Positions 4,608-33,926 of a DNA stretch of 64,000 nucleotides are shown here, piece after piece. Each line of letters begins with the position of its first letter. Within the stretch, counting starts at the first letter, position 1. The position numbers and the translations under genes were made by a program. The notes beneath the pieces are model-generated. The model was not told where the DNA came from. It saw only the letters and a list, made by a program, of their open reading frames with translations, and searched no databases. The stretch comes from Promethearchaeati archaeon SRVP18_Atabeyarchaeia-1 (GTDB lineage Archaea; Asgardarchaeota; Atabeyarchaeia; Atabeyarchaeales; Atabeyarchaeaceae): assembly GCA_037308085.1 (NCBI GenBank), contig CP147779.1, positions 352,001 through 416,000 of the forward strand. Reading direction: 5' to 3'.

Positions 4608-4749
4608 TGCGGCGCTCGGGATTTTCACCCTGGAGAGCTGGCATTCCAGCATGGGGATTTGAACCCGAGTATCCACCCTCGACCAGCGTTAAAGCCGAGG
4701 TTTGAGGCTTGGAAGGCCTCAGTCCTAGACCAGACTAGACCAGCGCCGC
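4608..4749 (-). tRNA. tRNA-Gly(TCC) with two BHB introns (45/46: 4671-4701; 59/60: 4622-4657)
   Basis: Removing both introns gives a 75-nt cloverleaf: acceptor GCGGCGC/GCGCCGC, anticodon arm GAGGC-CT TCC AA-GCCTC, T arm TCGGG-TTCAAAT-CCCGA. Confidence 0.93.
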
Positions 4750-4884
4750 AAAGCTCACAGTTATTGAACTCTCTTCATGTTTTTGCTTCTTAAGTTTTTC
4801 TCTGATCCCTAGATTGTTCGCCCCTATCCTAAAGTTGTGACGCTCTGGTCGATAGCGAAAAGAAAGAACTAAGAAGTAAGTAGA

Positions 4885-15104: not shown

Positions 15105-15276
15105 GCCGCCGTAGCTTAGCCCGGGAGAAATCTTCAGATTCAACCGACAGCGCCGGTCAAGTGGAGAGGATGTCACATCCTCACGTTGGGCGAAACTGAA
15201 GATCCGGTTGTCGCAGGAGGATACTCAGAGAGGGTCGTCTGGTATCCTGCGAGTTCAAATCCCGCCGGCGGCACCA
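15105..15276 (+). tRNA. tRNA-Phe(GAA) with three BHB introns (22/23: 15128-15148; 30/31: 15157-15194; 53/54: 15218-15253), CCA encoded
   Basis: Spliced 77 nt: GCCGCCG/CGGCGGC, CCGGA-CT GAA GA-TCCGG, GCAGG-TTCAAAT-CCCGC (one A.C mismatch). Confidence 0.9.
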
Positions 15277-15434
15277 ATTTATGTGCGATATTTTTAAGAG
15301 TCAGTTCTGTGAACGTTGAATTCCCGCAGAGACACGCGATTGGCGGCGTTGGATCAGTTTTGTCAGACTAATTATGGATTGAGCAGAATGCCTATGGCTT
15401 TTCACGCGGTGCCGGACAGGGTGAAAATGGCAAG

Positions 15435-17539: not shown

Positions 17540-18016
17540 ATGCCAAGTTATGGATACTCAATAATGGGGGTAGACCCAGACAAAACCGTGAAGGCCAGTG
17601 GACGGGATCTACGTATCTCACCCAAGAAAACGGCAGAAGTCTGCAGGGAATTGAACGGAATGAAGCTTGAAGAAGCTAGAGGAATGCTTGAAGAAGTCGT
17701 CAGCATGACCAGAATGATGCCGTTTCGCCGACATAAGAAGAAGCTTGGCCACCATGCCAACAAACTTAGGGAATACAAGTGGTTTGCTGGCGGTTATCCT
17801 GTTAAGGTTGCGACGCGTATCCTAGCGATCCTGAAGAATGCTGAGAGTAACGCTGACTACAAGGGACTTGATGTCGATAGACTCAAGATTATCCATGCCT
17901 CGGTTGATCTGGGACCAAAACTGAGGAGGTTTACGCCCAGGGCTTTTGGCAGAAGTTCGCCGAAATACGAGCAGCTCACAAGAGTCCAAGTGGTCCTCGA
18001 AGAAATGCCAGAGTAG
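17540..18016 (+). CDS. rpl22: 50S ribosomal protein uL22
   Basis: ISPKK..EVC and PRAFGR motifs. Confidence 0.97.
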   Translation: MPSYGYSIMGVDPDKTVKASGRDLRISPKKTAEVCRELNGMKLEEARGMLEEVVSMTRMMPFRRHKKKLGHHANKLREYKWFAGGYPVKVATRILAILKNAESNADYKGLDVDRLKIIHASVDLGPKLRRFTPRAFGRSSPKYEQLTRVQVVLEEMPE

Positions 18017-30338: not shown

Positions 30339-30468
30339 CTGGGCAGATCTAAGATGTCCCTTTGCAGGCACCCCACGTACCCCCAAGTTACTTACCGACC
30401 ATGCGACGCTTGTTCACTGGTCCTGCCTTCGCACCCGTTCTCCGCAGATTCAGCAGGAGATAATCTTA

Positions 30469-31014
30469 ATGGACTCAGGCATAGTCATAGTGATTGGAGG
30501 ATTGCATGGGACTGGCAAGAGTACTTGCGCGAGGCTGCTGGCCGAGAAGCTCAGTCTTCGGTATGTCTCTTCCGGAGGAATCTTTCGTTCGATCGCTAAT
30601 CAAAAGAAAATGACGATTGAGGAGCTTAGCAAGTACGCCGAGAAGCACCATGAGATCGATCGGGAAGTGGATTCCGAGGTGGTTCGAGCCTCGAGAGAAG
30701 GAAACATCGTTATTGAGGGGCAGATTGCGGCGGGTCTTGTCGAGGCGCCGGACATCAAAGTCTTCCTAACTGCTTCCGAGACTGTAAGGATCGACAGGTT
30801 GTCCTGTCGAGACAGGAAGAGTAAGGAAGAGTCATTAAGAGAGACAAAGTTGCGGGAAGCCAGCGAGAGGCGGAGATACATGGAAACCTACGGCATCAAT
30901 GTATCTGATCTCTCAGGCTACAATCTCGTCATAGACACATCCAAATGGTCAGCTGAAGCAGTCACAAGGATAATTGAGAGGTCCGTCGAGGAGTACCTTA
31001 AAGGAAAGGCTTAA
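30469..31014 (+). CDS. cmk: Cytidylate kinase
   Basis: GLHGTGKST, S.G.IFR and RE.SE..RY...YG. Confidence 0.92.
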   Translation: MDSGIVIVIGGLHGTGKSTCARLLAEKLSLRYVSSGGIFRSIANQKKMTIEELSKYAEKHHEIDREVDSEVVRASREGNIVIEGQIAAGLVEAPDIKVFLTASETVRIDRLSCRDRKSKEESLRETKLREASERRRYMETYGINVSDLSGYNLVIDTSKWSAEAVTRIIERSVEEYLKGKA

Positions 31015-31150
31015 AACACGACATACCCTTTCACTTGATGAACCAGCACCCTTTAGCAAGGGGGCAACGCTGAGTGCCTCTACCCATCCCGGATGACGGA
31101 CAAAGACACTGGGATGTGCAAGGCACGCGCTGCTGGAGGTGAAAGCACAC

Positions 31151-31432
31151 ATGGCAGCCATCGAAATTGGTAGAATCTGCGTTAAGACGCACGGAAGAGA
31201 AGTGGGGAGTAAGTGCGTTGTCGCTGACCTTATCGACGACAATTTCGTTCTCATAACTGGACCCAAAGATCTCAATGGAATCAAGAGGCGCAGAGTAAAT
31301 ATCAAACACATAGAAGCTACGAGCGACAAGATCAACCTGAAGAAAGGGGCCAGTGACGAAGAAGTCAAGAAGGCCTTACAGGCGGCCGGAAAACTCGAAA
31401 GCATGAACGAGAGGATCAAGATAAAGGCATAG
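31151..31432 (+). CDS. rpl14e: 50S ribosomal protein eL14
   Basis: IEIGRICVK..GRE.G and G.KRRR.N..H.E. Confidence 0.97.
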   Translation: MAAIEIGRICVKTHGREVGSKCVVADLIDDNFVLITGPKDLNGIKRRRVNIKHIEATSDKINLKKGASDEEVKKALQAAGKLESMNERIKIKA

Positions 31433-31547
31433 CTATCAAGGCTTCAACGCCCAGATAGCGTGCGTCAAATCTGACTTTTTCGTAATCTCCTCAGCTGATT
31501 TTTCGGCATGACTCATCCCCTAGATAAATAGGGAAGGGTACGTCAGT

Positions 31548-32611
31548 ATGTGTAAGGTGGTTTCAGCTATGAAAGAGTCGAAGCTTCCGTATGATGTTAA
31601 GAGAGACTTGTTGAGAAAGACTCGTGATCAAACTGACAGCAGGCATGGGTGCGATCCGTCCAAGCGCCAGATCAACGAGTATGTTAGCAAGGGCGTGATC
31701 AACCTTGACAAGCCGGCAGGGCCTACTAGCCATGAAGTCGTTGCCTGGATAAAGAAGATCTTCGGAATAGAGAAGGCCGGTCACGGTGGGACTCTAGAGC
31801 CACTCAGTGCGCACAACTCCGCATCGAGCGGTGGGGTAATCCTAGGGTGACTGGACTTCTTCCAGTGACTTTGAGCAGCGCGACTAGGCTTGTTCAGGCA
31901 ATTCTGCCTGCAGGTAAGGAATATGTCTGCGTTATGACGCTTCACGGAGATGTCCCAGAAAAGAAACTAGTTGAAGTTTGTAACGAGTTTGAAGGACCGA
32001 TCTACCAGAGGCCACCACTTAGATCTTCCGTGAAGCGCATGTCACGGATAAGGACGATATACTACCTGCAACTTCTCGAGGTGGATGTGCGGAATGTACT
32101 GATGAAAGTCGGGTGCCAAGGAGGGACGTACATAAGAAAACTCTGCCATGACATAGGGGAGGCAATTGGCTGTGGCGCCCATATGAAGGAACTGAGGAGA
32201 ACTAGGACAGGATCGTTCAAAGAGGATGAGACCATGGTTTCACTTCAGGATGTCGTTGATGCCGTTCATTTCTGGAAAGAGAATGGAAACGAAGCCTTCC
32301 TCCGTAGGTCAGTCCAGCCAATGGAGAAGACCACGGAGCATTTGCCTAGACTCGTTGTCCGTGATTCTGCCGTAGACGCATTATGCCATGGGGCTCAACT
32401 TGCAGCACCTGGCGTACTTGAGGTTCATACCGGAATAAAACAGAACGCACTAGTCGGGATTTACACTTTGAAGGAGGAGATTGTCGCGCTGGCTCGAGCG
32501 CAGCTTGACACCGAAGGCATAATGAAGGCAGATAAGGGTATAGTGGCTACGATTGAACGTGTTATCATGGAGCCCGGAGTATACCCGAAACATGAGAAGC
32601 AGGCTACTTAG
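31548..32611 (+). CDS. cbf5: H/ACA pseudouridine synthase Cbf5 (TruB family), interrupted by a 41-nt BHB intron at 31798-31838
   Basis: Two ORFs offset by 2 nt in frame. Removing 31798-31838 restores GHGGTLDPRVTG. Also LDKP.GPTSHEV, KEY, GTYIR and a PUA domain. Confidence 0.95.
31798..31838 (+). other. Pre-mRNA BHB intron in cbf5
   Basis: GGGA/TCCT outer helix, CTCT/GGGG central helix, bulges AG^A and TA^A, intron helix GCCACTC/GAGCGGT. Confidence 0.92.
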
Positions 32612-32650
32612 CTTCCCGGATCCAGAAAGTTAGCTGGAGGCCAACGAAAC

Positions 32651-33280
32651 ACGGCTGAACATTATTTCACCGCTGAACCCTCATCTGAGCTGAAGCTAGG
32701 CCTCTTGAAGGCAAGACTGCGAGGAGTAGATCTTCAGTTTCTTACGGCGAGGGGGGTGTTCTCTTACAGGAAAGTTGACAGGGGAACCATCGTACTCATC
32801 GACTCAATGGAGATACCTGAGAAAGGAAATGTTCTTGATTTGGGGTGTGGATGGGGTCCTATCGGAATAACTATTTCAGCGACTCACCCGCAAAACTGTG
32901 TCATCATGACTGACATCAACAAGAGGGCCATCTGGCTTGCCACCCAGAATGTCAGCCTCAACAAGGTCACCGCCGAGGTAAGGTGGGGCGAACTATATGA
33001 TCCTGTCGGTGATGCAAAATTCGACGCCATAATCACCAACCCACCCATTTCAGCAGGACGCAGCCTAGTAAGCAAAGCAATTGAAGAAGCAAACCACCAC
33101 CTCTCTCCCCGCGGAAGCCTGCAACTTGTGGCACGCACAAACAAAGGCGCTAAGGTCATTTCCATCATTATGGAAAACGTCTTCGGAAACGTACAGGAGA
33201 TTGAAAAGAAAAGCGGATATAGAGTCCTATGCTCACATAAGAAAGATGAAGGCAGCGAAGACAAGACTCTGGAGGCCTAA
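32651..33280 (+). CDS. RsmC-like small SAM methyltransferase; probable ACG start
   Basis: (T)AEHYFTAEP N-terminus upstream of TTG 32705; GVFS...VD.GT, LDLGCGWG and TNPP motifs. Confidence 0.88.
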   Translation, partial: TAEHYFTAEPSSELKLGLLKARLRGVDLQFLTARGVFSYRKVDRGTIVLIDSMEIPEKGNVLDLGCGWGPIGITISATHPQNCVIMTDINKRAIWLATQNVSLNKVTAEVRWGELYDPVGDAKFDAIITNPPISAGRSLVSKAIEEANHHLSPRGSLQLVARTNKGAKVISIIMENVFGNVQEIEKKSGYRVLCSHKKDEGSEDKTLEA

Positions 33281-33377
33281 GACACCTTAGCTAGAAAATG
33301 CGCACGACGCAAGCGATCCTGCAACGCACTAGCCGACACAGTTAAATGCCTACTCGAACCTTAAGAAAAACGTAAGT

Positions 33378-33498
33378 GCCGTGGTAGCCAAGTCTGGTTA
33401 AGGCGCGGGATTGGAGATCCCGTTCCCTTTTGGGAGCGTCGGTTCAAATCCGGCCCATTTCACGTGGTAAGCACACCATGTGGAGGCTAGCGGCGCCA
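33378..33498 (+). tRNA. tRNA-Ser(GGA) with a BHB intron in the acceptor stem (68/69: 33458-33490), CCA encoded
   Basis: CGGGA-TT GGA GA-TCCCG with a long variable arm. The 3' acceptor strand CCA^CGGC-G-CCA pairs with GCCGTGG only after intron removal. Confidence 0.92.
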
Positions 33499-33926
33499 TG
33501 CCCAATGCATGCTGAAGGACCGACATCTCCCCTGAAACCATCATGAACCGGAGTGCCCCTGCTTTCTTTTCCGCATACCCCTGTTGACGAGCTCCAGGTC
33601 CCCTGTCTCGTGTGCTCCAGAATTCAGTCGCTCAGCAACCTCAATCGCACGAATATGGCGATTGATATCTCATGCACCTTCCGATGGTTACGTAAAAGTG
33701 CATGCCAGAACCATTTCAGAAACGATTTTCGGATTGGATGGGTCGTAAGTCCGATGGATATAAAGCTCGCGAATGGAAAATGCTTAAATACTTATAATTG
33801 GCTTTCTGGTTTGCACAATCGTTCCATGCCGCGGAGAATCGGCAGGTCGATTTGCTTGGCAATGATTATATACCGATTGATCCCTAGTGGAGCGAAGCTG
33901 ACGCAGTTAATAGAGAGTGTTGCAGT

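Follow-up and report, generated by a model that had tools for sequence, protein, structure and literature searches.

A predicted BHB intron splits the catalytic Asp codon of cbf5 in an Asgard archaeon, at the site of the crenarchaeal intron

The cbf5 intron has been reported only in the Desulfurococcales and Sulfolobales, and its gain has been placed in their common ancestor (Yokobori 2009, PMC2738675); a 2023 review describes it as restricted to a small group (PMC10485636). The EndA of crenarchaea has a loop that broadens its substrate range (PMC3241643). In an Asgard archaeon, Atabeyarchaeia-1, introns have been reported in over 90% of the tRNAs of the genome (PMC11291895). Here we describe a putative intron of the crenarchaeal kind in the cbf5 gene of this organism. 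The window that we analysed is a stretch of 64,000 nucleotides (contig CP147779.1, 352,001 to 416,000), to which all coordinates refer unless a genome position is given. An earlier note, made from the letters of this DNA, had guessed a probable Asgard source, and rightly so: the sequence belongs to Atabeyarchaeia-1 (PMC11291895), which has a single-contig genome of 2,808,651 bp.

The window contains a ribosomal-protein superoperon in which cmk, L14e and cbf5 have their customary arrangement; a promoter and terminator scan, of a type ill-suited to archaea, returned nothing. On the plus strand cbf5 is split between two frames. The first (31548-31850, 100 aa) reads GHGGTLE up to the junction and continues to the TGA 31848-31850, 17 codons past it, so that the frameshift and stop claimed earlier for the unspliced message are indeed there; the second picks up at 31841 (PRVTGLLP) and extends to 32611. 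In profile searches, both parts match TIGR00425 and PRK04270 at consecutive positions: exon 1 (31548-31797, first ATG at 31548, alternative ATG at 31569) covers positions 6-71 and 3-68 of the two profiles, respectively, and exon 2 (31839-32611), with the rest of the TruB catalytic part and the PUA domain, positions 71-320 of PRK04270. Aligned with solved Pyrococcus Cbf5 chains, exon 1 runs up to residue 81 and exon 2 starts from 83; the corresponding residues are 124 and 126 in human dyskerin, and 94 and 96 in yeast Cbf5. The residue absent between the exons is the catalytic Asp (D125 in dyskerin, D95 in yeast Cbf5). By the profiles on both exons and the PDB chains, the host gene is a Cbf5 orthologue, and its closest named relative is Cbf5 of the Lake Cootharaba Asgard LC30 (79% identity).

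Among all in-frame deletions with starts at 31785-31809 and ends at 31825-31849, TLDP is restored solely by removing 31798-31838 or the sequence-identical 31799-31839. BHB geometry, with cleavage between bases 2 and 3 of each 3-nt bulge, selects the former, and the boundaries proposed earlier are thereby upheld. Exon 1 then ends in GHGGTL plus the G of the Asp codon, exon 2 begins with AT, and the insert lies between bases 1 and 2 of that codon, the site being defined as in PMC2738675. The predicted intron is a hairpin of 41 nt, frame-shifting (3n+2) and free of any ORF, and its size falls inside the published range of 16-44 nt. The spliced product would have 340 aa, with Asp84 recreated as G^AT in TLDPRV. 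Two further assemblies agree with this sequence at 1400/1400 and 968/968 bases, insert included, and an assembly error is thereby excluded.

The most stable predicted fold of 31787-31844 is a complete, canonical BHB (-20.0 kcal/mol), which is retained in longer windows and agrees with the BHB intron of the earlier note. In this minimum-energy fold, the exon-exon helix has 5 bp between 31787-31791 and 31840-31844 (pair probabilities 0.44-0.78), and the central helix 4 bp, two of them G-U, between the exonic strand 31792-31795 and the intronic strand 31833-31836 (about 0.8, with covariation as described below). The 5' bulge AG^A (31796-31798), which reads AGA in 19/19 Asgard introns, would be cut after 31797, and the 3' bulge UA^A (31837-31839) after 31838; these cuts, after base 2 of each bulge, coincide with both exon borders. 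The cbf5 motif ranks first among the window's 515 BHB-like patterns, and the same central helix with three intron pairs arises in 0.12% of shuffled inserts. In the two other Atabeyarchaeia genomes (G001, G002) the minimum-energy fold of the junction was not a BHB in the short windows tried; all four central pairs are possible. Other classes of intron were considered and rejected, spliceosomal (GT...AG) because the ends here are AG...TA, and group I, group II or homing-endonuclease introns because the insert is a simple hairpin of 41 nt to which no Rfam family matched at the site. A genome search for a source among other introns found no close copy (best match 14 nt, E 0.25). Elsewhere in the window, a 42-nt BHB-like fold at 17914-17955, 0.3 kcal above the minimum and near the 3' end of the ORF 17540-18016, is in frame and without stop, and is probably due to chance.

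We looked for the same site in other archaea with a DNA pattern for the cbf5 motif. Three control genomes, which we take to be A. pernix, S. acidocaldarius and S. hellenicus, gave inserts of 38, 22 and 36 nt. These are the published sizes (Table 1, PMC2738675). The pattern matched 373 of 400 Asgard genomes; 352 of the 373 have the intronless form alone, and 21 carry an insert at the same base, 19 of which are credible. The carriers are Atabeyarchaeia (3/3, 41 nt), one family each of Jordarchaeales (5/5) and Freyarchaeia (6/6), and two further families (4/4 and 1/1), with lengths of 26-41 nt; families f15 and f17 carry no established name. Most Asgard families are without it, and none was found in the loci named Hodarchaeota, Wukong, Thor and Hermod, or in Hadarchaeota and Hydrothermarchaeota. 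Two inserts in Asgard bins were set aside as probable binning contamination, possibly transfer: L134 (G336:C57), a second cbf5 copy that nests in Bathyarchaeia, and L129 (G299:C131), which groups with 'Thermoprotei' B3_G16.

Of 151 Thermoproteota genomes, sampled evenly, 139 matched the motif, and 84 of these have an insert of 11-38 nt, as counted by match length. A majority of Bathyarchaeia loci carry the intron, and the intronless genes L026, L046, L050, L073 and L171-L173 are nested among them; these are precise losses. One insert, in L226 (G430:C1:451178-451226), has 14 nt, and its source is presumably Ca. Caldiarchaeum subterraneum, in whose genome paper cbf5 goes unmentioned. The open-access literature that we searched, with subscription journals mostly outside it, yielded no publication with a cbf5 intron in Asgard or Bathyarchaeia. 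Judged from these genomes, the range of the intron is much wider than published, Asgard and Bathyarchaeia being new. The extension beyond Crenarchaeota suggested earlier therefore stands, and goes further than was thought; as an Asgard feature it does not, the intron being common in Bathyarchaeia and other Thermoproteota.

The insert occupies the same base in 204/204 cbf5 introns, and the central helix is complete in 193 of these 204 distinct introns, a held-out metagenome set included, with all four central pairs formed in each of the 19 from Asgard. Over 70 distinct junctions it is complete in 69, whereas random re-pairing of exon halves with intron halves left it complete in 52% on average and in 64% at most. 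In the second central pair, which involves base 3 of the Thr codon, both partners vary (C-G in 34, U-A in 23 and A-U in 11 of the 70), counts in which kin are not independent, although the changes do fall between phyla. The third base of the Gly codon is G in 58/70 genes with the intron versus 3/44 without it. Synonymous exon positions are thus constrained in intron-bearing cbf5. Within Atabeyarchaeia, exons share 72% DNA identity and introns 37-56%. The first intron base is A in 115/120, and the similarity of the intron ends exceeds what pairing needs.

Lengths of cbf5 introns span all three classes modulo 3, so a frameshift is not required. An in-frame stop is found in 61/61 introns of length 3n versus 92/143 in the other classes. 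In the first set the counts are 39/39 (13.4 expected by shuffling) and 49/81; in the held-out metagenome set, 22/22 and 43/62 (Fisher p = 0.002, a significance inflated by kinship); and, once a third-codon stop common to many Bathyarchaeia is left out, 18/18 and 38/89. As the test counts related sequences, its p-values overstate. The position of the stop differs among Bathyarchaeia, Jordarchaeales, family f15 and Desulfurococcales. An apparent exception, L337, was dismissed as not cbf5. Because every 3n intron has an in-frame stop, unspliced mRNA never encodes a full-length Cbf5 without the Asp, a protein that might nonetheless associate with guide RNAs and partner proteins. From this pattern we infer selection, across the family, against full-length but catalytically dead Cbf5, exerted via a frameshift or a stop in the intron. 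The stop-codon rule would then be a testable mark that archaea are under selection not to read through unspliced messages.

The genome has two EndA genes, which lie near 202,600 and 624,300 of G000:C1. One, alpha, carries the Tyr, His and Lys motifs of the catalytic site; the other, beta, lacks the His. The best PDB match of alpha is A. pernix EndA (3P1Z, E 5e-46), and its loop aligns with the crenarchaea-specific loop of that enzyme, lysine included. RtcB and Nop10 are encoded as well, and the Gar1 match is weak. Genes for an EndA of hetero-oligomeric type (two subunits, assembly predicted) and for the ligase are therefore in place. In the mechanism that we propose, the cbf5 pre-mRNA would fold into the BHB, (alpha-beta)2 EndA would cleave after G31797 and A31838, and RtcB would ligate the exons, recreating the Asp codon; translation of unspliced mRNA would stop after 100 aa, with the catalytic Asp left out. 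Four RNA runs of the same study gave no informative cover of 30400-33500 and have no bearing on splicing either way. Anatomy, fold prediction, conservation and enzyme genes are what was established for the cbf5 intron. Taken together, they make it very probable that this is a functional cbf5 with a short, protein-spliced intron, splicing being predicted from the crenarchaeal case. An intact cbf5 elsewhere, which would have spoken against such an intron according to the earlier note, was looked for genome-wide; there is no second cbf5, the weak extra match being an intact Pus10. The idea that the intron couples pseudouridylation to EndA holds insofar as Cbf5 would depend on splicing; regulation would be conjecture, and intact Pus10 is also in the genome.

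A genome-wide scan for BHB introns in apparently frameshifted genes had also been suggested. Our strict version, which recorded BHBs joining open frames and is no census, since relaxed motifs and in-frame cases escape it, surfaced gatE next to cbf5. Outside the window, at G000:C1:2219068-2219108 (L136:3069-3109), gatE has a 41-nt BHB insert that also splits an Asp codon (G^AT), its exons matching profile positions 3-86 and 88-628. The insert is conserved, with 35 nt in G001 and 41 nt in G002. That of Jordarchaeales and Freyarchaeia, 30 nt long and with an in-frame stop, is placed 5 nt further along, at a separate site. Excision likewise restores recognisable frames in pcm (28 nt, G000:C1:305604), L39e (49 nt, 242875), EndoQ (54 nt, 320569, minus strand) and ahcY (34 nt, 488226), each with a complete central helix; candidate introns in valS and rio2 did not pass the strict BHB filter. 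The genome thus appears to have more mRNA introns of BHB type, and cbf5 would be one of several mRNAs processed by BHB splicing in the lineage.

The window also holds tRNA genes. At about 15106-15277 (plus strand), ARAGORN calls tRNA-Met(CAT) only with its intron search on; the gene has at least two BHB introns of 38 nt, starting at 15157 and 15217, and was missed by default tRNA and Rfam scans. At about 4620-4750 (minus strand) lies another, for which the ARAGORN call of Trp is uncertain, with an insert in the anticodon arm and a 36-nt BHB intron in the T-loop from 4657. The sole tRNA found by default tools, tRNA-Ser(GGA) at 33378-33463, is apparently intronless.

Two readings would dispense with splicing altogether. 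cbf5 is dispensable in Haloferax, gene callers report the locus as two genes and Pus10 is present, all of which would suit a pseudogene or an assembly error in which the insert merely breaks the gene. Yet the insert is identical in two other assemblies, both exons are intact with 76-79% protein identity across the class, and the same site and compensatory pairing recur in two phyla, so that we consider this reading very improbable, and the gene functional as originally proposed. The two overlapping ORFs in different frames could equally suggest a programmed ribosomal frameshift or hop, and frameshifted genes are reported in Sulfolobales (PMC3119797); but the Asp codon is absent from the unspliced RNA, and the lengths of homologous inserts are spread over all three classes, those of the 3n class always with a stop, which leaves this reading scarcely credible.

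With a spliced intron as the preferred reading, three histories compete, and they do not concern the mechanism. Repeated independent gains at a predisposed site come close to an even chance. Through GG pairing with CC, the Gly-Thr-Leu-Asp-Pro codons already form one half of the exon helix, and such sites would be filled in lineages where tRNA introns come and go often. The Asgard carriers are Atabeyarchaeia, Jordarchaeales, Freyarchaeia and the two further families, and the first three are named in a preprint as tRNA-intron-rich groups, with independent gains inferred (10.64898/2026.10.13.758758). Cbf5 trees (FastTree; LG+G4 on 49 rows) require 10-15 state changes, at least 5-7 of them forced by strong branches, on a backbone that is unresolved, and repeated gain near one site does happen, since the gatE introns of Atabeyarchaeia and of Jordarchaeales/Freyarchaeia lie 5 nt apart. 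Against such gains, all 204 introns sit at exactly one base position, with ends alike beyond pairing needs, and loss is easy, intronless clades being nested in Bathyarchaeia and Desulfurococcales (PMC2738675). In a second, somewhat less probable history, the intron would have been gained once, before Thermoproteota and Asgard diverged. This would explain the same site and common junction consensus across two phyla, and the scatter of the intron over numerous Thermoproteota clades as well as five Asgard families, and the kept order cmk, L14e, cbf5 fits vertical descent; it needs several losses, given the 352 intronless Asgard genomes, including one on the line to Heimdallarchaeia and eukaryotes, and it too faces the unresolved backbone. 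Transfer of the intron or the surrounding cbf5 stretch from Thermoproteota, for example from Bathyarchaeia that share the soil, seems rather unlikely to us. The junction sequences are alike, and an AU test does not reject Atabeyarchaeia with Sulfolobales/Desulfurococcales as one clade (p = 0.39); nevertheless, Cbf5 of Atabeyarchaeia makes up a separate clade on a long stem (100/100), which has intronless Asgard sequences as its nearest neighbours and lies outside the Bathyarchaeia and crenarchaeal clades. This makes recent whole-gene transfer unlikely, junction-only transfer being outside the reach of trees.

The distribution overturns the published view, in which only two crenarchaeal orders have the cbf5 intron and their ancestor gained it, and would place tRNA-type splicing of a coding sequence in Asgard archaea. 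In practice, annotation pipelines break intron-bearing cbf5 in two and lose the catalytic residue. A broader reading, in which a single ancient Thermoproteota-Asgard intron was selected as a splicing gate, with length and stop content constrained such that full-length Cbf5 comes from spliced mRNA alone, and protein-catalysed splicing spread to many housekeeping mRNAs in intron-rich Asgard, is speculative and on balance doubtful; if true, protein genes that depend on splicing would have a precedent in prokaryotes related to eukaryotes. The cbf5 intron provides no link to spliceosomal introns, since the chemistry differs and the intronless Asgard include a Hodarchaeota-labelled locus.

The stop-codon rule has a parallel in eukaryotes, where 3n introns are reportedly enriched in stop codons, as Jaillon et al. 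are said to have described in 2008. The logic is the same, in that retention never yields a full-length product; it is an analogy only, as the eukaryotic case involves spliceosomal introns and NMD, and we know of no NMD-like surveillance in archaea. In-frame cbf5 introns are noted in PMC2738675, without mention of their stop codons. The BHB intron of Haloferax HVO_1309 is likewise an EndA substrate in an mRNA, but lies in the 5' untranslated region instead of coding sequence and is served by an alpha2 enzyme (PMC7714728). The tRNA introns of Atabeyarchaeia and Freyarchaeia share with the cbf5 insert the genome, the motif and the presumed enzymes, in similar lineages; the passages covered of PMC11291895 and 10.64898/2026.10.13.758758 deal with tRNA genes, and cbf5 or mRNA introns are absent from them. 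Closest of all is the cbf5 intron known from Desulfurococcales and Sulfolobales, for which PMC2738675 cites Watanabe 2002 and Yoshinari 2006; it lies in the same gene and at the same position of the Asp codon, and is alike in BHB borders, size and hetero-oligomeric EndA genes. The host here is an Asgard archaeon, the BHB is fully canonical, and splicing is predicted; by every testable criterion, the Atabeyarchaeia insert would be the crenarchaeal cbf5 intron.
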